Shown here piece by piece: positions 68-50,153 of a stretch of 53,441 bases of DNA (positions are counted from its first letter, which is position 1; each line of letters opens with the position of its first letter). The translations under genes and the position numbers were made by a program. Source of the DNA: Oscillospiraceae bacterium (GTDB lineage Bacteria; Bacillota; Clostridia; Oscillospirales; Butyricicoccaceae); NCBI GenBank assembly GCA_045638565.1, contig JAZUBN010000021.1:1-53441 (forward strand), written 5' to 3'. Under the pieces are notes generated by a model. It did not search any database and was not told where the DNA came from. It saw nothing but the letters and a program-made list of their open reading frames with translations.

Positions 68-116
68 AGCCTCCCTTGCCTAAAGGGAGGGGGACCACCG
101 AAGGTGGTGGAGGGAT
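68..116 (+). repeat. family-A structured intergenic repeat, copy A1 (CCTCCCT subtype)
   Basis: Hairpin 1 is CCTCCCTT-gccta-AAGGGAGG, hairpin 2 is ACCACC-gaa-GGTGGT, and the purine tail is GGAGGGAT. Nine other copies share this layout. Confidence 0.8.
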
Positions 117-128
117 ATATCCTCAATC

Positions 129-782
129 TTACAGCACCACATAAAACAGCACTGCAAAATACTGGAGAATCGTGCCGCCAAGCACGAAAAAGTGCCATAT
201 CGAGTGCATATATTTTTTGCGTATTGCGTAGAAGATGATGCCGACAGTGTATGCAAGACCGCCTGCCGCAAGAAGAATCATGCCGCCTTTTGCAAGGCTT
301 GCGATGAGCGGCTTTATAGCGAAAACAACCGCCCAGCCCATTGCGATATAGCATATCATAGAGAAAATCTTGAACTTTTCAAGGCTGACGATGTTGAGTA
401 TGACACCGATTATCGCCGCACCCCATACAACACCGAAAAGTGTCCACGCAATGGCAGGAGTTGTTTCACGAAGTGTTACAAGGGTGAAAGGGGTGTACGA
501 GCCTGCTATGAGCAGAAAGATGGAACAATGGTCAAAAACACGGAATACCGATTTGACCTTTCCGTCAGTAAACGAATGATAAAGGGCGGAAAATGTGTAA
601 AGAAGAATCATTGTTGCGCCGTAAATGGATGAGCTGACAACCTTCCATACATCGCCCTGAAGTGCGGAAAATACGATGAGAACAGCCATGCCGCCTGCTG
701 CGGCAAGAGCGCCTGTGCCGTGGGAGATAGAGTTTATAAGCTCTTCGGCAAGGGTGTAAACAGGTTTTTTGGATTTTTTCAT
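129..782 (-). CDS. trhA: hemolysin III / PAQR-family membrane protein (TrhA-like)
   Basis: 217 aa and multi-TM. Motifs NSISHGTGA, SALYHS, FDHCSIFLLIAGSYTPF and HSIWHFFVL are typical of the HlyIII family. RBS AAGGTG lies upstream of the ATG. Confidence 0.85.
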   Translation of the reverse strand: MKKSKKPVYTLAEELINSISHGTGALAAAGGMAVLIVFSALQGDVWKVVSSSIYGATMILLYTFSALYHSFTDGKVKSVFRVFDHCSIFLLIAGSYTPFTLVTLRETTPAIAWTLFGVVWGAAIIGVILNIVSLEKFKIFSMICYIAMGWAVVFAIKPLIASLAKGGMILLAAGGLAYTVGIIFYAIRKKYMHSIWHFFVLGGTILQYFAVLFYVVL

Positions 783-785
783 TGG

Positions 786-1226
786 TCACCTTAATTTCTT
801 GAAAAACTCGGTGAGAAGCTCTTTGCATTCATCCCCGAGAATGCCGCCAGTCACCTTTGGCTTGTGGTTGAAATTTTCGAAGAAAAGGTCGATAACGCCC
901 CCCACAGCGCCGCCTTTTTTGTCATATGCTCCGAAAAAGAGCGATTCTATCTTCGAATGAATGATTGCTCCTGCGCACATAGGACAAGGCTCGAGAGTGA
1001 CATACATATCGCAGCCTTCAAGCCTCCATGAAGACAAAGCGGAACAAGCCATGCTTATGGCGTTTATCTCGGCGTGACCGAGTGCTGTGTTGTTTCTTTC
1101 ACGGGTGTTGTGTCCCAGACCTATGATTTCGCCGTCTTTCACTATGACACAGCCCACAGGAACATCGCCTGAAAGGGCACATTTTTTCGCCTCTTCAATG
1201 GCGAGAGCCATATAATGTTCGTGCAT
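786..1226 (-). CDS. tadA: tRNA adenosine(34) deaminase
   Basis: 146 aa with cytidine/deoxycytidylate deaminase zinc motifs GHAEINAI and LEPCPMCAGAI. RBS GGAGGA is present. Confidence 0.92.
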   Translation of the reverse strand: MHEHYMALAIEEAKKCALSGDVPVGCVIVKDGEIIGLGHNTRERNNTALGHAEINAISMACSALSSWRLEGCDMYVTLEPCPMCAGAIIHSKIESLFFGAYDKKGGAVGGVIDLFFENFNHKPKVTGGILGDECKELLTEFFKKLR

Positions 1227-1292
1227 TTTGTCCTCCGCGCAGATTATACGAGAATTTTACCAAAGTAAATGACAAAAGTCAAGAAAAATGGC

Positions 1293-1321
1293 TTGAAAAA
1301 ATGCCCTATATAATGTATAAT
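1293..1321 (+). promoter_or_regulatory. candidate sigma-A promoter (TTGAAA-17-TATAAT)
   Basis: TTGAAA at 1293-1298, a 17-nt spacer, and TATAAT at 1316-1321. If active it would give gltX a leader of about 410 nt that contains the repeat mosaic. No experimental support. Confidence 0.35.
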
Positions 1322-1349
1322 TATTAAAATAGAATGGGTATCTATAAGC
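1316..1349 (+). repeat. 34-nt AT-rich direct repeat, copy 1
   Basis: tataattattaaaatagaatgggtatctataagc matches tataattattagaatagaatggagtattataggc at 1486-1519 at roughly 85 percent identity by eye, allowing one indel. The pair brackets the GC-rich module at 1375-1485. Confidence 0.7.
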
Positions 1350-1374
1350 AAATCTATAAAATAATTATACATTA

Positions 1375-1485
1375 TGGAGGGCCGAGCGCCCGACCGCGGC
1401 AAATGCCGTCGTGCCGAGCGGGAGGATTTACTCCGACCAGCGAGTATTAAATCGTGGGGCCCCTGCAAAACCTGTTTTGTGGGGA
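1375..1485. repeat. GC-rich structured module inserted in AT-rich spacer
   Basis: GGAGGGCCGAGCGCCCGACCGCGG...GGGGCCCCTGCAAAAC-ct-GTTTTGTGGGG. It shares the strings CGACCGCGG and CCGAGC with the insert at 1549-1628 and is bracketed by the 34-nt direct repeats. It contains no credible ORF. Confidence 0.55.
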
Positions 1486-1519
1486 TATAATTATTAGAAT
1501 AGAATGGAGTATTATAGGC
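1486..1519 (+). repeat. 34-nt AT-rich direct repeat, copy 2
   Basis: See copy 1 at 1316-1349. Confidence 0.7.
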
Positions 1520-1530
1520 TGATTCATATA

Positions 1531-1677
1531 AAGCCTTCCCCTTGAGGGTAGTGAAACGGCGACCGCGGTGTTGAATGACAACCCAGTGGGTTGTCAGACC
1601 CGCGGCGTGACCGAGCCGCAGCGAGACAGGTGTCAGCAAAGCTGACGGATGAGGTGTAGCCGTGTAACGGCGTTTAT
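1531..1677 (+). repeat. family-A repeat, copy A2, interrupted by an 80-nt nested insert (1549-1628)
   Basis: 1531-1548 is AAGCCTTCCCCTTGAGGG, the 5' part of the element. 1629-1677 is GGTGTCAGC-aaa-GCTGACGGATGAGGTGTAGCCG-tgtaa-CGGCGTTTAT, the 3' part. Intact copies have only GAA between these parts. The insert starts (G)GTAG, ends CCGCAGCGAGACA, and contains TGACAACCC-agt-GGGTTGTCA. Confidence 0.75.
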
Positions 1678-1735
1678 ATAATTACACCATTCCAAAATAT
1701 AGTTAAAAATCACTTCAGACGGAGGATAAAATATA

Positions 1736-3382
1736 ATGGACAACAACAAACTTGCCCAGCTTCTGTTCCCACACATCACTGTGGAAATGGACGAATATCT
1801 TGAAAAAATCTATCCAAAGCGTGACCTTCCGGAAGGCGCTTATGTAACACGCTTTGCCCCAAGCCCAACAGGCTTTATTCACATCGGCGGTCTTTTCACA
1901 GCCCTTGTAAATGAACGTCTTGCACATCAGTCGGGCGGTAAAATCTTCCTCAGAATCGAAGACACAGACAAGAAGAGAGAACAGGAAGACGGCATCAACG
2001 AAATCATCACAGGTCTTGCTGCTTTCGGCATCAACTTTGACGAAGGCAAGACTCTTGACGGCACAGAAAAGGGCAATTACGGCCCATATGTACAGAGCCA
2101 CAGAGCAGATATCTATCAGAGCTTCTGTAAGGCACTTGTTGTAAAGGGTTATGCATACCCTTGCTTCTGCACAGAAGAAGACCTTTCTGAAATCCGCAAG
2201 GTTCAGGAAGAAAAGAAGGTTCTCCCAGGCTATCATACAGAATATGCAAAGTGCAGAAACCTCACTTATGAAGAAATCGAAGAAAACATCAAGGCAGGCA
2301 AGCCTTATGTTGTACGTCTCAAGTCCCCGGGCAAAATCGGCGGCAGAGTCAAGTATAAGGACGTTGTCAAGGGCGATATCGAAATGGACGAAAACGTAGC
2401 AGATATCGTTCTCCTCAAGACAGACGGCATCCCAACATACCACTTCGCTCACGCTTGTGACGATACACTCATGGGCACAACACACGTTGTCCGTTCCGAT
2501 GAATGGGTACCATCTGTAAACATCCACCTTCAGCTCTTCTACTGCCTCGGCCTCAAGGCTCCAAAGTACTGCCACATCTCCCCAATCATGAAGGAAGACA
2601 ACGGCGGCAAGAGAAAGCTTTCCAAGCGTAAGGACCCTGAAGCAGCGGTAAGCTACTTCACAGAAGAAGGCTATCCAAAGGAAGCTGTGCTTGAATATCT
2701 CCTCACACTTGCAAACTCCCAGTACGAAGACTGGAGAAAGCAGAACAAGACAGCAGACCTTCACGATTATAAGTTCGCTATGAAGAATATGTCCAAGTCG
2801 GGCGCACTCTTTGACCTTGTAAAGCTCAACAACGTTTCGGGCGAAGTCATCTCCCGTTTCCCAGCTGAAAAGCTTTATGAATATGTTCTCGAATGGGCTA
2901 ATGAATTCGATAAGGAATTTGCTCAGAAGCTCACAGACAACAAGGATAAGGCTGTTACATTCTTCGGCGTTGACAGAAGCGGCAACAAGCCACGTAAGGA
3001 CATCACACAGTGGAAGGGTGTAGCTAAATATATGGAATACATCTTCTCCGATGTATTTGAATGTGAAGCTATCGAAAATATCGCAGCAGAAGACCAGAAG
3101 GCAGTTCTCGCCAAGTACGCAACAGTATTTGATGTAAATCATACAAAGGACGAATGGTTCGCTGCTATGAAGAGCATCTGCGAAGAGCTCGGCTTCTCTC
3201 CAGACGTTAAGGCTTATAAGGCTGACCCATCTGCATTCAAGGGCCATGTAGGTGATATCTCCACAATCGTCCGTGTTGCTCTCACAGGCAGAAAGAACAC
3301 ACCTGACCTTTATTCCATCATGGCTATCCTCGGCACAGATGAAATCAAGGCAAGACTTAACAAGTATATCGAAACTTTGTAA
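1736..3382 (+). CDS. gltX: glutamate--tRNA ligase (long, ~550-aa form)
   Basis: 548 aa. Class I motifs PSPTGFIHIGG (HIGH) and KLSKRK (KMSKS). RBS GGAGGA is present. Confidence 0.9.
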   Translation: MDNNKLAQLLFPHITVEMDEYLEKIYPKRDLPEGAYVTRFAPSPTGFIHIGGLFTALVNERLAHQSGGKIFLRIEDTDKKREQEDGINEIITGLAAFGINFDEGKTLDGTEKGNYGPYVQSHRADIYQSFCKALVVKGYAYPCFCTEEDLSEIRKVQEEKKVLPGYHTEYAKCRNLTYEEIEENIKAGKPYVVRLKSPGKIGGRVKYKDVVKGDIEMDENVADIVLLKTDGIPTYHFAHACDDTLMGTTHVVRSDEWVPSVNIHLQLFYCLGLKAPKYCHISPIMKEDNGGKRKLSKRKDPEAAVSYFTEEGYPKEAVLEYLLTLANSQYEDWRKQNKTADLHDYKFAMKNMSKSGALFDLVKLNNVSGEVISRFPAEKLYEYVLEWANEFDKEFAQKLTDNKDKAVTFFGVDRSGNKPRKDITQWKGVAKYMEYIFSDVFECEAIENIAAEDQKAVLAKYATVFDVNHTKDEWFAAMKSICEELGFSPDVKAYKADPSAFKGHVGDISTIVRVALTGRKNTPDLYSIMAILGTDEIKARLNKYIETL

Positions 3383-3470
3383 TACAACGAAAAATGCAGG
3401 GGCGGGTTTCCACGCCCGCCTGATAAATATAAAATCACATAATCCCATTTGATTTATACAGGAGTAAATA

Positions 3471-5150
3471 ATGGAAAATATTGAAAAGACAACAAACGAA
3501 GAAGTATTGTTTGAAGGCAACTTCATTCATGACTTCATTGATGAAGATCTTAAGGAAGGAAACTTCGACAGAGTTCAGACTCGTTTCCCACCTGAACCAA
3601 ACGGCTACCTTCATGTAGGCCACATCAAGGCTATCGCAGTTGACTTCACAACAGCAAAGAAGTACAACGGTATCTGCAATCTCCGCCTTGACGATACAAA
3701 CCCACAGAAGGAAGACGATGAATATGTAAACGCTATCATCGAAGATATCCGCTGGCTCGGCTTTGAACCGGACAATATCCTCTATGGCTCCAACTATTTT
3801 GACGACTGCTATGAAGCAGCTATCCGCCTTATCAAGAAGGGCAAGGCTTTCGTCTGCGACCTCAATGCTGAACAGATGAGAGAATACCGCGGCTCTCTCA
3901 CAGAGCCTGGCAAGGAAAGCCCATACCGCAACAGAACTGTTGAAGAAAACCTCGATCTCTTCGAAAGAATGAGAAAGGGTGAATTTGAGCCTGGTGAAAA
4001 GACACTCCGCGCAAAGATTGATATGGCATCCGGTAACGTAAATATGCGTGACCCTATCATCTACCGTATCATGAAGGTTCCACACGACCGCTGCGGCGAC
4101 AAGTGGTGCATCTACCCAATGTACGACTTCAACCACCCAATCTCCGATACAGTTGAAGGCGTTACACATTCCCTCTGCACACTTGAATTCGAAGACCACA
4201 GACCACTTTACGACTGGGTACTCAAGGAAGCTGAATTCGAAAAGCCATCCCGTCAGATCGAATTTGCTCGTCTCAACCTCAGCTACGCTCTTACAAGTAA
4301 GAGACGCTGCCTCGCTCTCGTAAACGGCGGCGCAGTAACAGGCTGGGATGATCCACGTATGGCAACAATCGCAGGTATGAGAAGACGCGGCTACCCAGCT
4401 CCAGCTCTCCTCGACTTCGTTTCCAAGGCAGGCCTTTCCAAGACATATTCTGTCGTTGATTACAGCCTCCTCGAATTCTGCGTACGTGACTATCTCAATA
4501 CAAATGCAGAACGTGCTATGGCAGTTCTCAAGCCTCTTAAGGTTGTTATCGAAAACTATCCTGAAGGAAAGACAGAAGAAGTTTCCGTTGAAATCAATCC
4601 AAATAAGCCTGAGCTTGGCTCCCGCAAGGTAACATTCTCCCGTGAAATCTACATCGAAGCTGATGACTTCACAGAAGTTCCACCAAAGGGCTACCACAGA
4701 CTTTCCCCAGGCAAGGAAGTTCGTCTCAAGGGCGGTTACTATATCACAGCTCAGAAGGCTGTTTACAACGAAAACGGCGACATCGACCACCTCATCTGCA
4801 CATATGACCCTGAAACAGCAGGCGGCACATCTCCTGACGGCCGCAAGGTAAAGGGCACAATCCACTGGGTTGACGCAAACAACTGCGTTGATGCTGAAGT
4901 TCGTCTTTACGACAGACTCTTCAAGAATCCTAACCCATCCGATGGCGAAGTATTCGATAACCTCAATCCTGATTCCCTCACAGTAGTTGAAAACGCAAAG
5001 GTTGAAAAGCATCTCCACGGTCACGCACCGCTCGATACTTTCCAGTTCCTCCGTCACGGCTACTTCACAGTTGACAAGGATTCCACAGCAGAGAAGATGG
5101 TCTTTAACAGAACAGTAACTCTCAAGGATTCCTGGGCAAAGCAGAAGTAA
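3471..5150 (+). CDS. glnS: glutamine--tRNA ligase
   Basis: 559 aa. RFPPEPNGYLHVGHIKA (HIGH region), LRLDDTNP, LTSKRR (KMSKS equivalent), and a GlnRS-type C-terminal beta-barrel region. Confidence 0.92.
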   Translation: MENIEKTTNEEVLFEGNFIHDFIDEDLKEGNFDRVQTRFPPEPNGYLHVGHIKAIAVDFTTAKKYNGICNLRLDDTNPQKEDDEYVNAIIEDIRWLGFEPDNILYGSNYFDDCYEAAIRLIKKGKAFVCDLNAEQMREYRGSLTEPGKESPYRNRTVEENLDLFERMRKGEFEPGEKTLRAKIDMASGNVNMRDPIIYRIMKVPHDRCGDKWCIYPMYDFNHPISDTVEGVTHSLCTLEFEDHRPLYDWVLKEAEFEKPSRQIEFARLNLSYALTSKRRCLALVNGGAVTGWDDPRMATIAGMRRRGYPAPALLDFVSKAGLSKTYSVVDYSLLEFCVRDYLNTNAERAMAVLKPLKVVIENYPEGKTEEVSVEINPNKPELGSRKVTFSREIYIEADDFTEVPPKGYHRLSPGKEVRLKGGYYITAQKAVYNENGDIDHLICTYDPETAGGTSPDGRKVKGTIHWVDANNCVDAEVRLYDRLFKNPNPSDGEVFDNLNPDSLTVVENAKVEKHLHGHAPLDTFQFLRHGYFTVDKDSTAEKMVFNRTVTLKDSWAKQK

Positions 5151-6272: not shown

Positions 6273-7442
6273 ATGAGAGAAGTTTTTCTTTTGAAGTTTG
6301 GCGAGCTGGTGCTCAAAGGTCTTAACAGACTCAAGTTTGAAAACCGCCTTGTCAAGCTTGTCAGAACAAGAATGTATAAATACGGCACATTCGAAGTTTA
6401 CGCAAAGCAGTCGGTGCTTTTCGTAGAGCCTATCGAATGTGAAGACCTTGAAGCAGCCTTCGATGCCTGCCGCAAGATTTTCGGTATAGTCGCGGTCCAG
6501 CGTTGCGCAGTTTGCGATAAGGATATTATGGTTGCCTGCAAGACAGCCGAAACTTATCTTGCAGATATGCTTAACGAAGTCAATAACTTCAAGGTCGAGT
6601 CCCGTCGCTCAGATAAGTCCTTCCCTATGACATCCATCCAGATTTCGCAGGAAATCGGCGGCTGGCTCAATGATAAGTTTGCTCATCTTTCCCCAAAGAT
6701 GGACAACCCTGAAATGACAGTCAAGGTGGAAGTCCGTGAAAAGGGCATCTACATCAGCGGTAAGGTTTATCCTGGCGCAGGCGGCTTGCCAACAGGCTCC
6801 AACGGACGCGGTCTCCTTATGCTTTCGGGCGGTATCGACAGCCCTGTTGCAGGTCATATGATGGCAAAGCGCGGTCTCGACCTCGCTGCAATCCACTTCT
6901 TCAGCTATCCATATACATCTGAAGAAGCAAAGCAGAAGGTGCTCAAGCTCGCTGAAATTATGACAGATTACACAGGCAAGATTCCTGTTTTCATCGTGCC
7001 ATTCACAGAAATCCAGGAAGCTATCCGCGATAACTGCTTCGAAGACCTCTTCACAGTTATTATGCGCCGCTTCATGGTGAGAATTGCCGATAAGCTCGCT
7101 CAGCAGCAGCTTTGCGGATGTATCATCACAGGCGAAAGCCTCGGTCAGGTTGCAAGCCAGACTATGGAAGCTTTGGGCGTTACAAATGCCTGCTCTGAAA
7201 CTCCTATCTTCCGTCCACTCATCGGTATGGATAAGAATGAAATCACAATAATTTCCCGCAAGATAGGCACTTTCGAAACATCCATCCTCCCATACGAAGA
7301 CTGCTGCACAGTCTTCACACCAAAGCACCCTGTCACAAAGCCAAAGATGAAGAAGGTCATCGAGGAAGAATCCCGCCTCGATATCGACGCACTCGTACAG
7401 CGCGCCCTCGACGAAACATACTACATCGTAGTGGGTGAATAG
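6273..7442 (+). CDS. thiI: tRNA 4-thiouridine(8) synthase ThiI (no rhodanese domain)
   Basis: 389 aa. THUMP-like N-terminus and PP-loop LMLSGGIDSPVA. It directly follows the cysteine desulfurase gene. Confidence 0.92.
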   Translation: MREVFLLKFGELVLKGLNRLKFENRLVKLVRTRMYKYGTFEVYAKQSVLFVEPIECEDLEAAFDACRKIFGIVAVQRCAVCDKDIMVACKTAETYLADMLNEVNNFKVESRRSDKSFPMTSIQISQEIGGWLNDKFAHLSPKMDNPEMTVKVEVREKGIYISGKVYPGAGGLPTGSNGRGLLMLSGGIDSPVAGHMMAKRGLDLAAIHFFSYPYTSEEAKQKVLKLAEIMTDYTGKIPVFIVPFTEIQEAIRDNCFEDLFTVIMRRFMVRIADKLAQQQLCGCIITGESLGQVASQTMEALGVTNACSETPIFRPLIGMDKNEITIISRKIGTFETSILPYEDCCTVFTPKHPVTKPKMKKVIEEESRLDIDALVQRALDETYYIVVGE

Positions 7443-7448
7443 TTTTAT

Positions 7449-7499
7449 GCCTTCCCCGGTGGGGGAAGGGGGACCGCTTGCGGTGGATGAGGCGTAACC
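7449..7499 (+). repeat. family-A repeat, copy A3
   Basis: GCCTTCCCC-ggtg-GGGGAAGG, ACCG-cttg-CGGT, tail GGATGAGGCG. It begins 6 nt after the thiI stop. Confidence 0.8.
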
Positions 7500-7506: not shown

Positions 7507-7537
7507 CGTAGGGACCGACGTCCTCGGTGGTCCGCAG
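7507..7537 (+). repeat. family-B REP-like element
   Basis: CGTAGGGACCGACG-tcct-CGGTGGTCCGCAG. It is nearly identical to 28745-28775 and is followed by the small hairpin GGCAAAC-gaa-GTTTGTCC. Confidence 0.8.
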
Positions 7538-8920: not shown

Positions 8921-8988
8921 AAGCCTTCCCCTCGAGGGGAAGGGGGACCGCTTGCGGTGGATGAGGTGTAGACCGAAGGTCGTTTTAT
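8921..8988 (+). repeat. family-A repeat, copy A4
   Basis: AAGCCTTCCCC-tcga-GGGGAAGG, ACCG-cttg-CGGT, GGATGAGGTGTAG, GACC-gaa-GGTC, GTTTTAT. It is preceded by the hairpin GGGCGGG-ctatgt-CCCGCCC at 8874-8893. Confidence 0.8.
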
Positions 8989-9784: not shown

Positions 9785-11329
9785 ATGAAAAACTTCAAGC
9801 GACTCCTTAACATAATGGGGCACAGAGTGACGATTTTCGGCTCGGCCATCATTATATCCCTGCTGCTTGCGGTGACATTCATCTTCGGTATGGTGGAGGC
9901 AAGAGCGTGGCTGCACAAGCTTGCGCTTCTGATTTCCACCCTCGTCGTCATCTATCTTATCAACAGCAGAGAAAAACCGGGCTATAAAATCGCCTGGATG
10001 ATACCAATACTGTGCGCCCCTCTCGTGGGCGGCATATTCTATGTGCTCTTTGGCATCAAGCGTTACTCACGCAGGGAAATAGCAAAATACCGCGATATCT
10101 CCCGCAAGGCGATGAGTGTAATCACACCCAATAAGCAGCTCAATGAAAAGCTGAAAAATAAAAACAGCAGGGCTTTTGCTCAGTCACGTTATATCGAAAA
10201 ATACGGACGTTTCCCAGCTTATGAAAATACCCACGTGGATTATTTCCGTCTTGGCGAGGATATGTTTGCTCAGCTGAAAGCCGATATGCGTAAGGCTCAG
10301 CATTATATCTTCATCGAAACATTTATAATCGAAGAAGGCAAAATGTGGGGCGAAATGCTGGAAATCCTTAAAGAAAAGGTGAAGGAAGGGGTTGACGTCC
10401 GTCTTATATGGGATGATTTCGGCTCGATTCTCCTTCTTCCAAAGGATTTTACACAAAAGCTTAAGGATGCAGGTATCAAATACGGCATCCATTATCCCCT
10501 TCGTCCGTTTATCGACCTTCGTTTAAACAACCGTGACCATCGTAAAATAACGGTCATCGACGGTCATACAGGCTATGTGGGCGGTATCAACATCGCCGAC
10601 GAATATATCAATGAAAAAGTAAAGTACGGCCACTGGAAAGATACGGCGGTCCGCCTTGAAGGCGAGGCTGTGTGGTCGCTCTCTGTGATGTTTCTCACAA
10701 TGTGGGATGCCATCAAGGGAGAAATGGCCGATTACGATAAGTACAGACCGCAGGTCTATATGGAAAATCTCCCGTCCTGTGACGGCATAGTCCAGCCTTA
10801 CTGCGATAATCCGCTGGACGGTGAAAATGTAGGAGAAACCGTCTACCTCAACCTTATAAACAAGGCTGAAAAATATATCTATATCACAACACCTTATCTG
10901 GTCATCGATGACGGAATGATAAATGCTCTGACAACGGCGGCAAAAAACGGCGTCGATGTGAGAATAATCACACCACACATCGGCGATAAATGGTATGTCC
11001 ACGCTGTTACACGCGCCCATTATAATGTGCTTGTGGAAGCAGGTGTCCGCGTTTATGAATATACACCGGGCTTCATCCACGCCAAGTCTTTTGTGGTTGA
11101 CGATGAATATGCCGTTGTGGGCACTATCAATATGGACTATCGCAGCCTTTATCTCCATTACGAATGTGCTGTGTGGATGCACGGCTGCTCGTGTATCGGA
11201 AAAATCAAGGACGACTTTATAGGTACAATGAATATAAGCGATGAAGTCTCGCCTGAAGAAATGCAAAATATCAGATGGTGGCAGCGCCTCGGCAGAGCAA
11301 TCTTACGTTGCTTCGCCCCAATGATGTAA
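9785..11329 (+). CDS. cls: cardiolipin synthase
   Basis: 514 aa with N-terminal TM helices. Two HKD motifs, HRKITVIDG...GGINI and HAKSFVVDD...GTINMD. Confidence 0.92.
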   Translation: MKNFKRLLNIMGHRVTIFGSAIIISLLLAVTFIFGMVEARAWLHKLALLISTLVVIYLINSREKPGYKIAWMIPILCAPLVGGIFYVLFGIKRYSRREIAKYRDISRKAMSVITPNKQLNEKLKNKNSRAFAQSRYIEKYGRFPAYENTHVDYFRLGEDMFAQLKADMRKAQHYIFIETFIIEEGKMWGEMLEILKEKVKEGVDVRLIWDDFGSILLLPKDFTQKLKDAGIKYGIHYPLRPFIDLRLNNRDHRKITVIDGHTGYVGGINIADEYINEKVKYGHWKDTAVRLEGEAVWSLSVMFLTMWDAIKGEMADYDKYRPQVYMENLPSCDGIVQPYCDNPLDGENVGETVYLNLINKAEKYIYITTPYLVIDDGMINALTTAAKNGVDVRIITPHIGDKWYVHAVTRAHYNVLVEAGVRVYEYTPGFIHAKSFVVDDEYAVVGTINMDYRSLYLHYECAVWMHGCSCIGKIKDDFIGTMNISDEVSPEEMQNIRWWQRLGRAILRCFAPMM

Positions 11330-11334
11330 AGCAG

Positions 11335-11402
11335 AGCCTTCCCCTTGAGGGGAAGGTGTCACACTAAGTGTGACGGATGAGGTGCAGCCAAAGGCGTTTT
11401 AT
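11335..11402 (+). repeat. family-A repeat, copy A5
   Basis: AGCCTTCCCC-ttga-GGGGAAGG, GTCACAC-taa-GTGTGAC, GGATGAGGTGCAG, GCC-aaa-GGC, GTTTTAT. It begins 5 nt after the cls stop and lies between cls and the kinase gene. Confidence 0.8.
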
Positions 11403-11454
11403 TCAATGAGCCTTCATATCTTTCAACAAAACCCAAATGAAAAGAGGAAATCCT

Positions 11455-20163: not shown

Positions 20164-21489
20164 ATGGGAAAAATTAGAGTTGTACATTATGTCAACCAGT
20201 TCTTCGCAGGTATTGGTGGCGAAGAAAAGGCTGACCAGGTAGCGTTCAAGCAGGACGGTACTATGCCTATCGGTTCTCAGATCGAAAAGGCAATGCAGGC
20301 TATTAACGCAGATGTAGAAATCGTTGGTACAATCGTATGCGGCGACTCCTACTTCAATGAAAATCTCGAGAAGGCTAAGGCTGACATTCTCGAAATGGTA
20401 AAGAGCTATGAACCAGACCTCTTCATTGCAGGTCCAGCATTTAACGCAGGTCGTTACGGTGTTGCTTGTGGTACTATCACAGTAGAAGTTCAGGAACAGC
20501 TCAACATTCCTGTTCTCACAGGTATGTATAAGGAAAACCCAGGTGCTGATATGTACAAGACAAAGGTATATATCGTTCCTACAAAGGACTCCGCAGCTGG
20601 TGCTCGTGACGCTATCAAGAAGATGGCTCCTCTCGCTGTTAAGCTCGCAACAGGCCAGGAAATCCTCGCTTCTTGCGTAGATAACTATATGCCAAACGGT
20701 ATCCGTAAGAACTTCTTCGAAACAAAGCGTGGTTCTGAACGTGCTGTTGAAATGATGATCAAGAAGCTCGCTGGTAAGGAATTTGTTACAGAATTCCCAA
20801 TGCCTGACTTCGACCGTGTAGATCCAAACCCAGCTGTTAAGGATATGTCCAAGGCTCGTGTTGCTCTCGTTACATCCGGTGGTGTTGTTCCAAAGGGTAA
20901 CCCAGACCGTATCGAATCCTCTTCTGCTTCCAAGTACGGCGAATACTCCATCGCAGAATTCGACGATCTCACAGAAGAAACACACGAAACAGCTCACGGT
21001 GGTTACGACCCAGTTTACTGTAACCAGGACTCCGACCGCGTTCTTCCAGTTGACGTTCTTCGTGAAATGGAAAAGGCTGGCCGTATCGGTAAGCTCCACG
21101 AATACTTCTACACAACAACAGGTAACGGTACTGCTGTTCTTAACTCTGTTGCATTTGCTAAGGAATACTCCCAGAAGCTCGTTGCAGCAGGCGTAGACGC
21201 TGTAGTTCTCACTTCCACCTGAGGCACATGTACAAGATGCGGTGCATCTATGGTTAAGGAAATCGAACGCGCTGGTATCCCAGTTGTTCACATCTGCACA
21301 GTTACACCAATCTCCATGACAGTTGGTGCTAACAGAATCGTTCCAGCTATTGCTATCCCTCATCCACTCGGTAACCCAGCTCTCTCTATGGAAGAAGAAA
21401 AGGTTATCCGTCGTAAGATTGTTGAAACTGCTCTTCAGGCTCTCGAAACAGAAGTTGACAAGCAGACAATCTTCGAAGTTAAGTATTAA
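20164..21489 (+). CDS. grdB: glycine reductase selenoprotein B (Sec at codon 353, UGA 21220-21222)
   Basis: Track ORFs 20164-21222 and 21250-21489 are in the same frame. The junction reads VVLTST-UGA-GTCTRCGASMVKE, the canonical GrdB selenocysteine motif. RBS AAGGAGG. Confidence 0.93.
21235..21249 (+). promoter_or_regulatory. candidate SECIS apical hairpin for grdB
   Basis: AGATGC-GGT-GCATCT is a 6-bp stem with G and U in the loop, beginning 13 nt after the UGA. This spacing and loop type match bacterial SECIS elements. I could only see a weak lower stem. Confidence 0.55.
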
Positions 21490-28744: not shown

Positions 28745-28775
28745 TGTAGGGACCGACGTCCTCGGCGGTCCGCAG
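28745..28775 (+). repeat. family-B REP-like element
   Basis: TGTAGGGACCGACG-tcct-CGGCGGTCCGCAG. Confidence 0.8.
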
Positions 28776-35571: not shown

Positions 35572-35600
35572 ATAAAAATCTCTTCCATTTCCCACATCCT

Positions 35601-35651
35601 GCCTCCCCTTGTCAGGGGAGGGGGACCATCGGAACTATGGTGGAAGGGTAG
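35601..35651 (+). repeat. family-A repeat, copy A6 (CCTCCCC subtype)
   Basis: GCCTCCCC-ttgtca-GGGGAGG, ACCAT-cggaact-ATGGT, tail GGAAGGGTAG. Confidence 0.75.
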
Positions 35652-35652
35652 T

Positions 35653-35682
35653 AAAAAAGCCATCCGTAAGGGTGGCTTTTTC
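35653..35682 (+). terminator. rho-independent terminator
   Basis: AAAAAGCCATCC-gtaa-GGGTGGCTTTTT. Confidence 0.75.
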
Positions 35683-35769
35683 TATACTGTCAAATAAATG
35701 ACACAGCTTGCCATTATATTCATTGTATGTTATCATATAATCATAATAAATAATCCACAGGAGGCTATT

Positions 35770-40940: not shown

Positions 40941-40955
40941 ACTTAATCGCTCCTC

Positions 40956-41003
40956 GCCTCCCTATGATGAGGGAGGGGGGCCGCACTGCGGTGGAGGGAG
41001 AGA
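40956..41003 (+). repeat. family-A repeat, copy A7 (CCTCCCT subtype)
   Basis: GCCTCCCT-atgatg-AGGGAGG, CCGC-act-GCGG, tail GGAGGGAGAG. It begins 15 nt after the permease stop. Confidence 0.8.

Positions 41004-44614: not shown

Positions 44615-44615
<1 letters not shown>
43962..44615 (-). CDS. HAD-family hydrolase (phosphoglycolate phosphatase-like)
   Basis: 217 aa. Motif I VLFDLDGTL and motif IV MVGDKHHD. The start overlaps the guaB stop (TAATG). Confidence 0.8.
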
Positions 44616-46099
<1,484 letters not shown>

Positions 46100-46127
46100 T
46101 TAGTTTATTTGACTTATTATTCCCATA

Positions 46128-46156
46128 AATATAGCACAATTTAAACTTAATGTCAA
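46128..46156 (-). promoter_or_regulatory. candidate guaB promoter (TTGACA-17-TATATT, TG extended -10)
   Basis: The reverse complement shows TTGACA (46156-46151), a 17-nt spacer ending in TGc, and TATATT (46133-46128). Confidence 0.55.
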
Positions 46157-46223
46157 CAAAAAATCACAAAATTTTCCGATGAAATAGCTGTAAAAATATG
46201 CTATAATATTAGTATGATACTGA

Positions 46224-46278
46224 AGCCTTTCCCCATAGGGGAAGGGGGACCACCTCTGGTGGTGGATGAGGCGTAATC
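46224..46278 (+). repeat. family-A repeat, copy A8
   Basis: AGCCTTTCCCC-ata-GGGGAAGG, ACCACC-tct-GGTGGT, tail GGATGAGGCG. It lies in the divergent guaB/ogg spacer. Confidence 0.8.
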
Positions 46279-46359
46279 ATTCTTAAAATTGTATGTCATT
46301 CTGAACGAATGTGAAGAATCTCATACGCTTACTTATAACTTAACTTACACGAGGTGCTT

Positions 46360-47175
46360 ATGAAGATTATTGAGCATAAAAATTACATAGAAATAAAGGA
46401 TATCGAGCGTTTTGCCCCGAAACACACATTCGAATGCGGTCAGTGTTTCCGCTGGTTTGAAAAGGACGGAAAGTTTGAAGGGGTTGCCATGGGGAAGAAG
46501 CTGACCGTCTGGGCAGATGAAAATGCCCTGTATATGACATCGACACAAGCCGAGTTTGAAAGCATCTGGCGAAAGTATTTCGACCTTGACCGAAGCTATG
46601 AAAATATTGCAAAAGCTTTCAATGGCGATGAGTTTTTCGAAAAGGCTGTCGAATACGGCCTCGGCCTTCGCCTTCTGAAGCAGGACCCTTGGGAGGCCTT
46701 GTGCTCCTTTATCATTTCCCAGTGCAACAATATTTCACGCATACAGAAAATCGTTGCCACCTTATGCGAAAACTTTGGCGAGAAAATCGAGGGGGGATAT
46801 GCCTTCCCGACTGCCGAAAGAATAGCTCAGCTCGAGCTTTCTGACCTTGATATTCTGCGCAGCGGATACCGTGCAAAATATATCCTGAATGCGGCAAAAG
46901 CCGTTGCAAACGGGGAGATTTCTTTTGAAAAGCTGGAATCCATGCCGACAGATGAGGCACGTAAATACATAATGAGCCTTAATGGCGTGGGCAGAAAGGT
47001 CGCCGACTGCTTCCTGCTTTTCGGTATGGCAAAGTATGACGCTTTCCCTGTGGACACATGGATGAAAAAGGCGAAAGACCACTACGATATCAAAAATTAC
47101 GGCGCACACTTCGGCGAATTCGCCGGCATCGCACAGCAGTATATCTTCTATTACGCACGAAGCCAGAAAATATAA
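46360..47175 (+). CDS. ogg: HhH-GPD DNA glycosylase, Ogg-type (8-oxoguanine DNA glycosylase/lyase)
   Basis: 271 aa. HhH-GPD region LNGVGRKVADCFLLFG...FPVDTW with a lysine in the hairpin. The N-terminal OGG_N-like FECGQCFRW is present. Confidence 0.7.
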   Translation: MKIIEHKNYIEIKDIERFAPKHTFECGQCFRWFEKDGKFEGVAMGKKLTVWADENALYMTSTQAEFESIWRKYFDLDRSYENIAKAFNGDEFFEKAVEYGLGLRLLKQDPWEALCSFIISQCNNISRIQKIVATLCENFGEKIEGGYAFPTAERIAQLELSDLDILRSGYRAKYILNAAKAVANGEISFEKLESMPTDEARKYIMSLNGVGRKVADCFLLFGMAKYDAFPVDTWMKKAKDHYDIKNYGAHFGEFAGIAQQYIFYYARSQKI

Positions 47176-47213
47176 TTATGCAATGGCATTATGCTCGTCC
47201 GCACAATGCTTAT

Positions 47214-48050
47214 TTATGCCTTCTTTTTAAGTACAGAAATTGTTCTTACAGTCTTATAACCAAGTGACTTATAAAGTCCGATAGCTCTTTCATTTATCGA
47301 AACAACTTCCAGCTCAGCAAAGCCTCTTTCTGACATAAGAGCACGGTTTGTAGCAAAAATTGCAAGCTGACGACCAAAGCCAAGATCCTGAGCTTCAGGA
47401 AGCACGCAGAGATTTTCAATATGGTTGCCCATTTCGATAGTTACAGCTGCGATAGGCTTGTCCTGAGAGTTGATGGCAAGGAATGTCTCACTTTCAAACA
47501 TTTCATCACGGTTGCCGTTAGGGATGATTTTGTATGGCTCAGCGCCGATTGTCTTGCGCATATCATAGAAAGCCTCGCCTAAAAGCTCGTAGTAGCTTTC
47601 ATAATACTTGTCTTCGTAAGGCTCGAAAAGTGTATTAGGTGTTGGCAGAAGCTCATCATTATACACCATAGTGTGTGTGGAAATCCAAGGAAGGAAGCCG
47701 ATTTTGCCGCAGAAATAGATTGCTGCAAGGTCGTCTGCGAGAATGCGGCATTCGTAGGAATCACAGGAGTATCTCTCCTTTGCAAGACGGGAAATGCTGT
47801 GCCATAAAGCTGTGCCGATACCCTGACGACGTACAGATTTGTCAACAACGATGCCTACGTCAATGCGCTTGCCCATTGCGAAAGGCTGGAAAAAGCCGAA
47901 AGCCACGATTTCCTTGTTTACTTCGTAAACGAAAACTCTGCCTTCGTTGTGGGCGATTATATCTTCAATATTGAGAAGGATGTCCTTGGCGTTGTCAAGG
48001 GCAATCTTTTTAACTGTTTCAAGATGTTCCTGCTTAAAAAGTTTAACCAT
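47214..48050 (-). CDS. GNAT-family N-acetyltransferase (two acetyltransferase-like halves)
   Basis: 278 aa from ATG 48050 (RBS GGAGGT). RRQGIGTALW and QDLGFGRQL are acetyl-CoA binding motifs. Confidence 0.72.
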   Translation of the reverse strand: MVKLFKQEHLETVKKIALDNAKDILLNIEDIIAHNEGRVFVYEVNKEIVAFGFFQPFAMGKRIDVGIVVDKSVRRQGIGTALWHSISRLAKERYSCDSYECRILADDLAAIYFCGKIGFLPWISTHTMVYNDELLPTPNTLFEPYEDKYYESYYELLGEAFYDMRKTIGAEPYKIIPNGNRDEMFESETFLAINSQDKPIAAVTIEMGNHIENLCVLPEAQDLGFGRQLAIFATNRALMSERGFAELEVVSINERAIGLYKSLGYKTVRTISVLKKKA

Positions 48051-48203
48051 ATTACCTCCGAAGAGCACTTTTCTGTGCCCTATAAATATACATTATAATT
48101 ATAACACAAAATATTTGAAATTTCAATAAATTGACACCACTTTAACGCAGTTGAAAAGCTATATATAATATGGTATAATAAGTTAAAATAAAATGAAATT
48201 TAT

Positions 48204-48232
48204 TGTAGGGGACGGCGCACTCGACGTCCCGG
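48204..48232 (+). repeat. family-B REP-like element
   Basis: TGTAGGGGACG-gcgcactcga-CGTCCCGG. Confidence 0.8.
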
Positions 48233-48279
48233 GTTATCAATAGCGAAATTAATAATTTATCATACAAAGGAGAACTACT

Positions 48280-48924
48280 ATGAAGATACTCATCACAGGT
48301 TTTGAACCATTCGGCGGCGAAAGCATCAATCCATCATGGGAAGCTGTAAAGCTCCTTCCAGATTCCATCGACGGTCACGAAGTTGTAAGAAAAATGCTCC
48401 CTTGCGTATTTGTCAAGGCAGGCGACGTGCTTGATGCACTTATCGAAGAACATAAGCCTGATTTTGTTTTCTGCGTAGGTCACGCAGGCGGCAGAGCAAA
48501 TCTCACTGTCGAAAAGGTTGGCATCAATCTTATGGACGGCAGAATTGCCGACAACGAAGGCTATCAGCCTGTCGACGAGCCAATCAAGGCTGATGGCGAA
48601 ACAGCATACTTCTCCAATCTTCCTGTCAAGGGCGTTGTAAACGCAATCCGTGAAGCAGGCATTCCTGCTTCTGTTTCCTATACAGCAGGTACATACGTAT
48701 GCAACTATATTCTCTATACAACAATGTATCTCATCAATAAGAAGTACCCAAATATCAAGGGTGGCTTTATGCACATCCCATTTGCTCCTGAACAGGCTGT
48801 AACAAAGTCCCCAAGCACACCAACAATGCCTATCCCAATGATCGCAGACGGCATCAAGGCAGCGGCTAAGTTTATCCTTACAAACAGCGAAGAACTCAAG
48901 GTAAACGAAGGCACAGAACACTAA
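48280..48924 (+). CDS. pcp: pyroglutamyl-peptidase I
   Basis: 214 aa. KILITGFEPFGGESINPSWEA, and Cys/His in GTYVCNY...MHIP. Confidence 0.92.
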   Translation: MKILITGFEPFGGESINPSWEAVKLLPDSIDGHEVVRKMLPCVFVKAGDVLDALIEEHKPDFVFCVGHAGGRANLTVEKVGINLMDGRIADNEGYQPVDEPIKADGETAYFSNLPVKGVVNAIREAGIPASVSYTAGTYVCNYILYTTMYLINKKYPNIKGGFMHIPFAPEQAVTKSPSTPTMPIPMIADGIKAAAKFILTNSEELKVNEGTEH

Positions 48925-48934
48925 TTCAAATATA

Positions 48935-49000
48935 AAGCCTTCCCCTTGAGGGGAAGGTGTTAGCAAAGCTGACGGATGAGGTGTAGCCGAAGGCGTTTAT
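48935..49000 (+). repeat. family-A repeat, copy A9
   Basis: AAGCCTTCCCC-ttga-GGGGAAGG, GTTAGC-aaa-GCTGAC, GGATGAGGTGTAG, GCC-gaa-GGC, GTTTAT. It begins 10 nt after the pcp stop. Confidence 0.8.
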
Positions 49001-49029
49001 TAAATAGTGCCACAGGCACCTTACGTCAA

Positions 49030-49055
49030 TGTAGGGGAGCCGCTTGCTGCTCCCG
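49030..49055 (+). repeat. family-B REP-like element
   Basis: TGTAGGGGAGC-cgcttgct-GCTCCCG. It lies 30 nt after copy A9, the same A-then-B arrangement as at 7449-7537. Confidence 0.8.
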
Positions 49056-49090
49056 AAACATCATAATCCTACCTCAAAAGGAGAATAAAT

Positions 49091-49744
49091 ATGAAAAAAA
49101 TCGTTGCTGTAAATACAAGCCCGCGCACAGGCTGGAATACATCCACTCTTGTAAATGAAGCGGCAAAGGGCGCACAGAATGCAGGGGCTGAAGTCGTGGT
49201 TTTCGACCTCTATAAAATGGAAAAGTTCACGGGCTGTATCTCCTGCTTCGGCTGTAAGCTCGCGCCAAACGAAGGCAAGTGTATTTGCCAGGATGGTCTT
49301 ACACCAATCCTCGACGCAATCAGAGAGGCTGACGGTCTCATCATCGGCACACCAAACTATCTCAGCAATGTTTCTGCCGGCTTCCACGCTCTACACGAGC
49401 GCCTTTACTTCCAGTATGTCACATACCAGAAGGAAAATCCAAGCTATCCACATCGCAAAATCCCTGTGCTTTTCATTATGACAAGCGGCGCAGGCGAAGA
49501 TGCATATACACCTGAGCGTTACGGCCGCCTTGTCGATTCATACAAGCGCACTCTCGGTATGGTAGGCCCTACAAAGGCTCTCATCAGCGGCAACGCATAT
49601 CAGGTGCCTGATTACAGCAAGTACAACTGGACTCTCTTTGACCCTGAAGCAAAGAAGCAGCATTTTGACACAGTATTCCCACAGCACAAGCAGCAGGCTT
49701 TTGAATTAGGTGCTGAAATGGTAAATACACCTTGGGAGGCATAG
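49091..49744 (+). CDS. flavodoxin-family / NAD(P)H-dependent FMN oxidoreductase
   Basis: 217 aa. IVAVNTSPR..., the Cys cluster CISCFGCK...CIC, and GLIIGTPNY. Confidence 0.7.
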   Translation: MKKIVAVNTSPRTGWNTSTLVNEAAKGAQNAGAEVVVFDLYKMEKFTGCISCFGCKLAPNEGKCICQDGLTPILDAIREADGLIIGTPNYLSNVSAGFHALHERLYFQYVTYQKENPSYPHRKIPVLFIMTSGAGEDAYTPERYGRLVDSYKRTLGMVGPTKALISGNAYQVPDYSKYNWTLFDPEAKKQHFDTVFPQHKQQAFELGAEMVNTPWEA

Positions 49745-49745
49745 T

Positions 49746-50090
49746 ATGTTATCACCGGTTTACATAGCCGCAGGAGTGTTGGTTTTTGCGGCATTCGCAG
49801 TCTTTCAGCATTGGACTCTTAAAAATGGGCTTACAAGAAGCATCAGAAATATGCCACTCGTGTTTGCCCTCGTCGCTGTGTTTATGAGCCTTATGATTTA
49901 TTCGGGCGCATTCGGCGGCGATAAGGCGGCTCTCGGTTTTACAGAAAAGGAGCTTTACGGTCTTTCTTTCGGCATGATTTCCGCCTGCGCTCTCTTTGGC
50001 GATTTCCTCGGCTGGATAGTCTTCAAAATGACAAATAAACAGCCAAAGCCACAGCCTAAAAAGAAAAACAATAAAAAGAAGAAGAAATAA
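49746..50090 (+). CDS. small hypothetical membrane protein with poly-Lys tail
   Basis: 114 aa with 3-4 hydrophobic helices. C-terminus KQPKPQPKKKNNKKKKK. The ATG lies 2 nt after the previous stop, with GGAGG inside the end of the upstream gene. Confidence 0.55.
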   Translation: MLSPVYIAAGVLVFAAFAVFQHWTLKNGLTRSIRNMPLVFALVAVFMSLMIYSGAFGGDKAALGFTEKELYGLSFGMISACALFGDFLGWIVFKMTNKQPKPQPKKKNNKKKKK

Positions 50091-50104
50091 CGCACCAAGC
50101 TCTC

Positions 50105-50153
50105 TTGCCTCCCTCAGACGAGGGAGGTGGCACGCACAGCGTGACGGAGGGAG
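50105..50153 (+). repeat. family-A repeat, copy A10 (CCTCCCT subtype)
   Basis: GCCTCCCT-cagacg-AGGGAGG, CACGC-aca-GCGTG, tail GGAGGGAGTG. Confidence 0.8.

Follow-up and report, generated by a model that had tools for sequence, protein, structure and literature searches.

The REP/REPIN elements are short structured extragenic repeats that occur in hundreds of copies, with the gene of a RAYT, a Y1 HUH transposase, lying between inverted copies. Four classes of intrastrand triplex motif have been defined, and class II consists of a pyrimidine arm, a purine arm and a reverse-Hoogsteen strand (Holder et al. 2015, PMC4666352). Repeats of this kind were first described in the 1990s in E. coli, where they were named BoxC, later PIT and later TM_ECO, with the consensus CCCTCNCCC N3-6 GGGNGAGGG N3 GGGNGAGGG (PMC4666352). 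TM_ECO copies are intergenic and without strand bias, often form inverted pairs of two types and usually contain one mismatched triplet; their triplex is stable in vitro, and they have no known function, lack promoter and terminator activity and are linked to local genome variability (PMC4666352). According to Holder et al. 2015 (PMC4666352), the purine-motif triplex is a property of DNA that RNA is unable to adopt. The motif whalefall-1, whose known occurrences are confined to whale-fall metagenomes, was published as a non-coding RNA, and its authors considered it likely to be one (Weinberg et al. 2010, PMC2864571). Here we report on ten copies of an intergenic repeat in a 53,441-nucleotide (nt) stretch of contig JAZUBN010000021.1 from an Oscillospiraceae bacterium, referred to below as the window. 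From our analyses we conclude, with good support, that this family is a hairpin-bearing variant of the class II intrastrand-triplex repeat, and that the window holds gene-less copies of a family associated with genes for DUF559 nucleases.

All ten window copies and several hundred relatives have the same order: a pyrimidine arm, a complementary purine arm and a segment of G, A and T. The two arms form hairpin 1 (P1), a second hairpin (P2) follows, and the G/A/T segment is hereafter called the tail. All ten sites were read directly, a loose regular expression was run over both strands of the whole window, and R1, a covariance model built from 79 family members, was run over the same sequence with filters off. 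R1 recovers exactly ten copies, all on the + strand, nine of them intact and one interrupted, with E-values from 4e-23 to 1.5e-07. Neither the regular expression nor R1 found further copies in the window, and the minus-strand matches were only the palindromic hairpin 1 in reverse. A sequence-only reading of the window had previously listed ten copies with two hairpins, purine tails and, in some copies, a third small hairpin, and all of this was recovered when the sites were read. The listed hairpin 1 arms were also correct, except that the copy at 46224 has a one-base bulge caused by an extra T in its 5' arm (CCTTTCCCC). The main point which that reading overlooked is the mirror relation of the tail to hairpin 1.

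Across the subfamilies the tail repeats the purine arm in reverse order, A:T pairs being faced by either A or T. Thus, arms CCTTCTCC and GGAGAAGG are accompanied by the tail GGATGAGG, arms CCTCCCTC and GAGGGAGG by GGAGGGAG, arms CCTCCCTT and AAGGGAGG by GGAGGGAT, arms CCTCCCCT and AGGGGAGG by GGAGGGGT, arms CCCCCTT and AAGGGGG by GGGGGATT, and arms CCCTCTCC and GGAGAGGG by GGGTGTGG. The window copies match the mirror at 7/8, 7/7 or 8/8 positions, which agrees with the class II definition of an antiparallel third segment forming at least 6-8 triplets with no more than one mismatch (PMC4666352). Relatives were collected from a one-genome-per-species bacterial collection (the element-selected loci, 120 listed stretches of at least 120) and from a viral contig collection (L202-L321, 120 listed stretches of at least 120), the fetch pattern for the main subfamily being GCCTTCCCC N3-6 GGGGAAGG N14-30 GGATGAGG. 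In the non-main subfamilies of the element-selected loci, 45 of 106 modules carried a perfect mirror tail, compared with 8 perfect direct repeats and 7 in an upstream control. A second test used loci chosen by their protein only, in which 130 modules were detected blind to the tail. The mirror was perfect in 52 of these and had at most one mismatch in 99, against 7 and 31 for the direct repeat. Composition-matched shuffled arms gave means of 5.1 perfect matches and 35.1 with at most one mismatch, and dealing the tails among the modules gave a mean of 8.3 perfect matches.

The triplet rule was scored as G with C:G and A or T with T:A, using a model-fitted alignment that carries no information on the mirror relation. 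It was satisfied in 794 of 906 cells, compared with 293-526 in slid controls, 500 in the direct register and at most 694 with permuted tails. Triplets 4, 7 and 8 covary (Fisher p 5e-18, 4e-24 and 1e-14). The same is seen in the main family at position 9, the base after GGATGAGG, which was free in the fetch pattern: it is T in 69 of 76 cases with a T:A closing pair and G in 20 of 21 cases with a C:G pair, spread over 62 and 16 loci, respectively. By our reasoning, mirror repeats are to be expected neither from templated copying nor from symmetric protein binding, and the covariation therefore points to a folded structure. The mirror covariation is the rule predicted for an antiparallel purine-motif DNA triple helix, and from it we infer that the triplex forms in cells.

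Two other roles for the tail were considered and rejected. Pairing of the tail with the 5' arm, as in a switch or attenuator, fits worse than the mirror (500 versus 794 of 906 cells), and position 9 tracks the loop-closing pair, not the invariant 5' G. A pyrimidine-motif triplex on the bottom strand, which would be compatible with RNA, was rejected as the selected form because T often stands opposite A:T on the top strand, and the pyrimidine third strand would then have to contain A.

The hairpins themselves covary. The 131 distinct main-family sequences contain 112 versions of hairpin 2, nearly all of them paired. When 123 distinct members were aligned by the model, both sides vary in each of the 8 P1 pairs and the 5 modelled P2 pairs, and pairing is kept in 92% of cells; covariation scores 0.436, compared with 0.185 in shuffles (0/500 reach it) and at most 0.134 with slid partners. 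The compensatory stem changes reported in the sequence-only reading thus extend to all 13 modelled pairs, and its argument that a conserved fold with drifting sequence is under selection is borne out by both the pair and the triplet tests. P1 and P2 together are the minimum-energy DNA fold of all nine intact window copies, with the tail unpaired each time in a folding tool that models Watson-Crick pairs only. Loop 1 measures 3-6 nt, and the connector between purine arm and tail, mostly 10-25 nt, forms P2. Loops of GNA and GNNA closed by C:G are classic, highly stable DNA mini-hairpins. Among 221 distinct P2 hairpins, 31% have the loop C(GNA)G, many more have cGNNAg, 5% have GNRA and 0% have UNCG. 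Some P2 stems contain tandem G·A/A·G mismatches at their middle (L011, L034 and L119), for instance CCGAGC GAA GCGAGG and CTGAAC GAA GTGAAG. A 'flip-flop' of the P1 loop, CTCG versus CGAG, occurs at one orthologous site only and was set aside as a general feature; the loop TTGA was counted 41 times in the tabulated classes, and TCAA was absent from the listed loops.

The family is very large, being found in gut and rumen Clostridia, in other phyla and in phage contigs. Among the matches listed, most hosts are Clostridia of the gut and rumen (Oscillospiraceae, Acutalibacteraceae, Christensenellales, Ruminococcus and Lachnospiraceae), including isolates of Gemmiger and Pseudoflavonifractor; hosts outside the Clostridia are Schwartzia/Selenomonas and two Bifidobacterium isolates.

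Cross-comparison of the element-selected loci revealed a common unit of ~440 nt, consisting of a copy, an open reading frame (ORF) of 120 amino acids and an inverted copy. The enclosed protein belongs to DUF559 (Pfam PF04480, E 3.8e-30), with a weak match to the NCBIfam YcjD model. Its relatives in the PDB are 3hrl (E 8e-27) and a Vsr-fold homing endonuclease (3r3p, E 6e-6; for I-Bth0305I as the source, see PMC3424549). The D, E-x-D and Q-H columns are invariant in eight aligned DUF559 proteins, and a DUF559 protein has been reported to provoke an SOS/DNA-damage response in Caulobacter (PMC12907096). A DUF559 gene lies between inverted copies in 9 of the 120 listed element-selected loci. In cassettes such as L001 the upstream copy and the gene point the same way, and 3-8 nt separate the end of the copy's tail GGATGAGGTG from the start codon, with the tail at the expected position of the ribosome-binding site. 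The downstream inverted copy overlaps the stop codon in several Clostridial cassettes and the last codons in L001. The nuclease gene lies outside the window, and the sequence-only reading could not have included it.

The association was also seen when the loci were chosen by the protein. Eighty metagenome loci were fetched by DUF559 similarity alone (45-88% identity), and 73 of them have a generic class II module no more than 150 nt from the gene, compared with 0/97 at mock positions 900 nt away in these loci. Copies recognised by R1 lie within 150 nt of the gene in 62/80 loci; within 150 nt upstream, 42 are sense and 10 antisense. Where both flanks carry a copy, the two are usually of one repeat type. 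Protein and repeat co-diverge: protein identity is 64.8% between loci of the same repeat type and 53.6% otherwise (0/1000 label permutations reach this), and the nearest protein neighbour has the same repeat type in 35 of 54 cases. No report linking DUF559 or ycjD to triplex repeats was found in the literature searched, which did not cover subscription-journal papers such as Hoyne et al. 2000.

The linkage of gene and repeat holds across phyla. In E. coli K-12 (NC_000913.3), 168 nt separate the DUF559 gene ycjD (1351407-1351760, minus strand) from TM_ECO #9 (1351204-1351239). The ycjD stop codon overlaps a decayed pyrimidine arm, CCCTCTCCC (L121 = 1349500-1352500, ~1700-2340), about 40 nt of the 3' end of ycjD is duplicated ahead of the intact TM_ECO #9, and the start codon is preceded by a hairpin and GAATGAGGTG, which resembles the Clostridial tail. 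A tblastn search with YcjD against a plasmid collection returned 34 records, and eight taxonomically diverse ones were fetched (Neisseria, Picosynechococcus, Synechocystis, Deinococcus, Azospirillum, Sphingomonas, Sinorhizobium and Klebsiella). BoxC-type class II motifs lie within ~100-160 nt of the DUF559 gene in 8/8, usually on both sides; in the two cyanobacterial loci, where the arms are shorter than or divergent from the detector threshold, they were read by eye. The clearest case is S. meliloti, where the gene is preceded at 23 nt by CCCTCTCCCCGCGCGCGGGGAGAGGGCTAGGGTGAGGG and followed at 52 nt by the inverted counterpart of this motif.

Intact cassettes, pseudogenes, a deleted cassette, doublets and singlets form a decay series. 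The gene is intact in L001 and L038 and has a premature stop in L041, an internal deletion in L104 fuses its first 25 codons to the inverted copy, and in L020 a gene-less doublet remains with a spacer of ~27 nt. The window holds singlets only. Four head-to-tail copies with a 49-nt period occur in L116 (1154-1349), with single-position differences in the P2 loop (one) and at the unit junctions. At orthologous phage sites with flanks of 91-100% identity, the copies have different P1 loops or P2 hairpins, or even belong to different subfamilies. The purine arm seems to be a target for other small elements: a 58-nt insertion in viral locus L302 lies in the same purine arm as the ~80-nt insertion of window copy 1531, and the two insertions are not alike.

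Taken together, we regard it as fairly probable that the window copies are non-autonomous members of a triplex-forming repeat family with a DUF559 cassette, and that the nuclease drives their propagation or retention. The G-rich strand, reading 5'-G-pyrimidine arm, loop, purine arm, 1-3 nt, variable P2 and G/A/T tail-3', would fold into P1 when the DNA is transiently single-stranded. The tail would then lie antiparallel in the major groove of P1, with the triplets G*G-C, A*A-T and T*A-T, and P2 would serve as a structured connector in place of the 3-nt loop of BoxC. In this proposal the repeats would be the inverted terminal repeats of a small cassette encoding a DUF559 (YcjD-type, Vsr-like PD-(D/E)XK) endonuclease. 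The protein would act on the folded repeat, recognising and nicking it or a cruciform, and repair or replication would then copy or retain the repeats. Cassettes would decay to doublets and singlets, and these would persist in intergenic DNA. The spread of copies and its route are inferred. Such a system would parallel that of REP/REPIN and RAYT, with a different enzyme and a different DNA structure.

Several observations weigh against this explanation. A PD-(D/E)XK nuclease alone cannot join DNA. A DUF559 gene is absent from the window and from 1.07 Mb of listed element-bearing phage contigs, so action in trans must be assumed. No target-site duplication was found at the borders of the copies, and there is only one doubtful empty site, most related loci being filled at that position. 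The geometry of gene and repeat also varies, since tails face the gene in Clostridia and Sinorhizobium, and pyrimidine arms do so in Deinococcus and at the E. coli stop codon. The main subfamily keeps a non-canonical triplet, A opposite C:G at position 6, in 70 of 118 cells. Orientation is unexplained, being sense with respect to the majority gene strand for 10/10 copies in the window, 50:1 antisense in phage contigs and mixed in bacterial loci. Finally, in vivo dimethyl sulfate footprinting of E. coli TM_ECO gave no stable triplex (PMC4666352).

The ten window copies are listed in Table 1. The 3' part of copy 1531 is 97% identical to copy 48935, and copy 8921 shares 93% identity over 72 nt with a copy in a Clostridia genome from buffalo caecum (L018). 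Apart from one such element, none of the fetched loci overlaps the window. The genes flanking the copies are unrelated housekeeping genes (PLD/cls-like and histidine kinase at copy 11335, MacB/FtsX permease and SLH at copy 40956, ThiI and CinA, pyroglutamyl peptidase, OGG); the first two pairs agree with the cls|walK and ABC permease|SLH neighbours named in the sequence-only reading. That reading also noted the absence of a T-run after the copies, which is true of the element itself, but a separate terminator follows copy 35601. The repeat is indeed not a plain intrinsic terminator, as P2 is succeeded by a purine tail in every copy and the T-run near 35601 belongs to a separate hairpin.

Table 1. 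Copies of the repeat in the window, with their matches to covariance model R1 and their parts (numbers in the first column are the starting positions by which the copies are named in the text)
Copy	R1 match	Extent	Strand	Hairpin 1 (P1)	Hairpin 2 (P2)	Tail	3' module	R1 score (bits)	DNA fold (kcal/mol)	Setting
1 (68)	67-119	69..116	+	pyrimidine arm CCTCCCTT 70-77, loop 78-82, purine arm AAGGGAGG 83-90	ACCACC/GGTGGT 94-108	GGAGGGAT 109-116; mirror match 8/8		31		between terminator 30-56 and stop codon of minus-strand gene 129..782 (~12 nt away), antisense to this nearest gene
2 (1531), interrupted	1613-1657; weak 5' piece 1531-1578	1533..1677	+	5' piece GCCTTCCCCTTGAGGG 1533-1548; hairpin-rich insertion of ~80 nt, ~1549-1629, in place of part of the purine arm	GTCAGC/GCTGAC	GGATGAGG 1647-1654	GTAG + GCCG/CGGC hairpin + GTTTAT to 1677	26 (1613-1657); 6 (1531-1578)		
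3 (7449)	7447-7495	7449..7494	+	GCC, then CCTTCCCC/GGGGAAGG	ACCGC/GCGGT, CTTG loop	GGATGAGG 7485-7492, then CG		53.8		begins 7 nt 3' of stop codon of ThiI-like gene 6273..7442
4 (8921)	8921-8969	8923..8988	+	CCTTCCCC/GGGGAAGG	ACCGC/GCGGT	GGATGAGG 8959-8966	GTAG + GACC/GGTC hairpin + GTTTTAT	60.6		
5 (11335)	11334-11385	11336..11402	+	CCTTCCCC/GGGGAAGG	GTCACAC/GTGTGAC	GGATGAGG 11375-11382	GCAG + GCC/GGC hairpin + GTTTTAT	68.6	-14.4 (z -6.0)	
6 (35601)	35599-35652	35601..35649	+	CCTCCCCT/AGGGGAGG	ACCAT/ATGGT	GGAAGGGT 35642-35649; mirror match 7/8		33.5		separate canonical hairpin + T-run terminator ~35654-35684, 5 nt after the copy
7 (40956)	40954-41003	40956..41000	+	CCTCCCT/AGGGAGG	CCGC/GCGG	GGAGGGAG 40993-41000		32.5		
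8 (46224)	46223-46274	46225..46273	+	CCTTTCCCC/GGGGAAGG (one extra T)	ACCACC/GGTGGT	GGATGAGG 46264-46271, then CG		52		divergent intergenic region, upstream of OGG-like gene
9 (48935)	48935-48984	48937..49000	+	CCTTCCCC/GGGGAAGG	GTTAGC/GCTGAC (one T:G position)	GGATGAGG 48974-48981	GTAG + GCC/GGC hairpin + GTTTAT	61		begins ~10 nt 3' of stop codon of pyroglutamyl-peptidase gene
10 (50105)	50105-50156	50107..50153	+	CCTCCCTC/GAGGGAGG	CACGC/GCGTG	GGAGGGAG 50146-50153; mirror match 8/8		49.6	-14.6	

The terminator adjoining copy 68 is a canonical hairpin with a T-run, readable as a terminator on both strands. A TATAAT sequence lies at 46202-46207, ~17 nt upstream of copy 46224, and this copy may be at the extreme 5' end of the transcript of the OGG-like gene. 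A second short GC-rich repeat (CGTAGGGACCGACGTCCTCGGTGGTCCGCA-like) is present at 7508-7537, directly after copy 7449, and at 28746-28775, the two being 97% identical over 30 nt. Elsewhere in the window, an in-frame TGA (21220-21222) closes ORF 20164..21222 and is directly followed by a SECIS_4 match (21223-21260, 41.5 bits), after which the reading frame resumes in ORF 21250..21489; the region 21220-21260 likely belongs to a selenoprotein gene. A full-length T-box leader lies on the + strand at 52667-52900 (127 bits). Together with the SECIS element and the gene content, it points to a Firmicute resembling Clostridia.

The position of the copies relative to genes bears on an RNA function, the general explanation to which two of the three candidates in the sequence-only reading belonged. 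Genes were called by a codon-position score, which gave a sensible gene map of the window; a longest-ORF caller was dropped for its many shadow ORFs. All ten window copies are on the + strand, which is the majority gene strand, and seven are sense between co-directional + genes. Six begin 5-30 nt after a + strand stop codon (7449, 11335, 35601, 40956, 48935 and 50105), as had been claimed. Among isolated copies of other bacterial genomes (98-126 in the listed loci), 10-16 are sense between co-directional genes and 18-22 antisense, 13 are in convergent and 5 in divergent contexts, and orientation is unrelated to GC skew or gene-strand bias (53/104 and 52/104). Among the matches listed in phage contigs, 50 copies are antisense and 1 is sense (p 5e-14; examples were confirmed by reading), a polarity opposite to that of the ten window copies. 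The 163 phage-contig copies represent 121 clusters by flank similarity, and in 26 of 28 multi-copy phage contigs all copies are on one strand. One possibility is that the G-rich strand is costly as the non-template strand in heavily transcribed phage operons, which would not explain the window. A Shine-Dalgarno mimic or CsrA site, suggested by the GGA/GAGG content, was set aside, as orientation is not tied to transcripts.

If the repeat were an RNA element, acting as a 3'-end stabiliser, processing site or attenuator, its hairpins would block exonucleases or its Shine-Dalgarno-like tail would bind ribosomes. The strand and the 3' positions of the window copies fit such a role, as do the stable, covarying hairpins and the tail at the expected ribosome-binding site of the DUF559 gene. 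Copy 35601 lies between a stop codon and a terminator and is probably transcribed, and the authors of the related motif whalefall-1 took it to be a likely RNA (PMC2864571). These points are outweighed by others, and we consider an RNA element unlikely. Orientation is mixed or antisense elsewhere, which does not support a general sense-RNA role, and copy 68 in the window is itself antisense to its neighbour. The covariation of the mirror tail has no explanation in RNA pairing, the Watson-Crick direct register fitting worse, and purine-motif triplexes are reported to be unable to form in RNA (PMC4666352). GNRA loops are few, UNCG loops are absent, and no Rfam family matches. As a general explanation, the 3'-end stabiliser or processing site of the sequence-only reading is therefore not upheld, given the orientation, the mirror tail and the loop types; an RNA effect of the sense copies in the window genome is conceivable. 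The third candidate of that reading, a single-stranded DNA hairpin used for mobilisation, comes nearest to the evidence.

The evidence for a DNA structure could also be accommodated by one that serves the host independently of DUF559, as a pause site in replication or transcription, a site for nucleoid, gyrase or repair proteins or a generator of local genome variation, with the nuclease gene landing in such repeats or being retained nearby. The link of TM_ECO to local genome variability without promoter or terminator activity (Holder et al., PMC4666352) would suit this, as would the preference for 3' ends (convergent 13 versus divergent 5) and the strict orientation in phage contigs, which suggests an orientation-dependent cost or benefit in transcription or replication; the repeat is itself the target of other small insertions. 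We nevertheless find such a structure quite improbable, because the geometry of gene and repeat (the tail at the expected ribosome-binding site, the overlap with the stop codon, the matched flanks and the co-divergence) is too specific for chance, and because the association reaches 73/80 against 0/97 and is also found in other phyla. The copies might instead be ordinary miniature inverted-repeat transposable elements or solo terminal repeats of a conventional transposon, in which the hairpins and mirror tail are incidental to transposase sites. High copy number, intergenic location, inverted doublets, the tandem array of L116, occurrence in phage contigs and near-identical copies in distant genomes would all be expected of these. 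We hold this to be very improbable, however: the inverted copies enclose DUF559, no transposase gene was seen between them, no target-site duplication was seen, and, as reasoned above, neither templated copying nor symmetric protein binding is expected to yield mirror repeats, whose covariation points to a selected fold.

The nuclease-associated triplex repeat, which we favour over these alternatives, would be of general microbiological importance. Repeats of the BoxC/PIT type have so far had no function, partner protein or evidence of folding in cells. A third strand that covaries with its duplex over hundreds of diverged copies is the type of evidence that established RNA structures, applied here to a DNA triple helix. 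The family also provides a candidate enzyme, as DUF559/YcjD, a protein of unknown function, is tied to the repeats in Firmicutes, Proteobacteria, Deinococcus and cyanobacteria. More tentatively, and with an expectation somewhat short of even, we propose that intrastrand-triplex repeats in all bacteria (the Clostridial family, BoxC/PIT and probably whalefall-1) have DUF559 nucleases as their partner enzymes, in a relationship like that of REPIN and RAYT but with a PD-(D/E)XK nuclease that recognises a DNA hairpin folded into a triple helix. If so, the covarying third strand would be evolutionary evidence of a DNA triple helix that is formed and selected in living cells. Repeats and protein are now directly testable in E. 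coli. Clostridia of gut and rumen, like their phages, carry the repeats in abundance, and there they could be mistaken for small RNAs, terminators or ribosome-binding sites.

Among described repeats, the family most resembles BoxC/PIT/TM_ECO. Both have the class II order with an antiparallel G/A/T third strand and, as found here, both adjoin DUF559 genes. As in TM_ECO, there is usually one mismatched triplet, the copies are intergenic and stand singly or in inverted doublets of two types, and the tail, GGATGAGG(G/T)G, is one or two positions apart from the GGGTGAGGGG of TM_ECO. The family differs in its second loop, which is a covarying hairpin P2 of 14-30 nt, compared with 3 nt in TM_ECO, in its arms (7-9 nt, CCTTCCCC-like), in the third small hairpin of some copies and in its hosts, chiefly Clostridia of gut and rumen with their phages. 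Nothing in the window matches the TM_ECO consensus. Published searches for triplex motifs limited the connecting loop to 1-6 nt (ITxF) or 0-10 nt (Hoyne et al. 2000), as quoted in PMC4666352, and the P2 connector is longer than this. We expect searches with such short loops to have missed this family.

In a search of the whole window, none of the copies matches an Rfam family at gathering score, in agreement with the sequence-only reading, and a lax E-value adds only whalefall-1 and Hammerhead_II. The latter (RF02276, 15.4 bits against a gathering score of 37) was rejected, as the core reads CGGAUGA, not CUGAUGA, and GAAA is absent. For whalefall-1 (RF01762), the score on 11320-11415 is 15.1 bits (E 0.079), well short of the cut-off of 37, and the repeat is not a member of it. 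The two are alike in having a pyrimidine/purine hairpin 1, a covarying hairpin 2 with a CUUG loop and a purine tail, and the consensus tail of whalefall-1 (GUGAGG) likewise mirrors its purine arm (GGAGAGA). Judged by this consensus, whalefall-1 may be, like the present family, a triplex repeat of DNA rather than an RNA.

The nuclease shares its fold family with Vsr and I-Bth0305I, the latter a selfish homing enzyme, together with the invariant acidic and Q-H columns. Unlike theirs, the DUF559 gene is tied to structured repeats and not to a cytosine methyltransferase or an intron. In organisation, the closest parallel is REP/REPIN-RAYT. The enclosed gene differs, encoding a DUF559 PD-(D/E)XK nuclease and not a Y1 transposase (no Y1_Tnp match was returned), and the repeat is a triple-helix module without a 5' GTAG guide, rather than one imperfect palindrome. 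In both systems, structured extragenic repeats occur as singlets and inverted doublets with a preference for the 3' ends of genes, one small gene lies between inverted copies, and gene and repeat type co-diverge.

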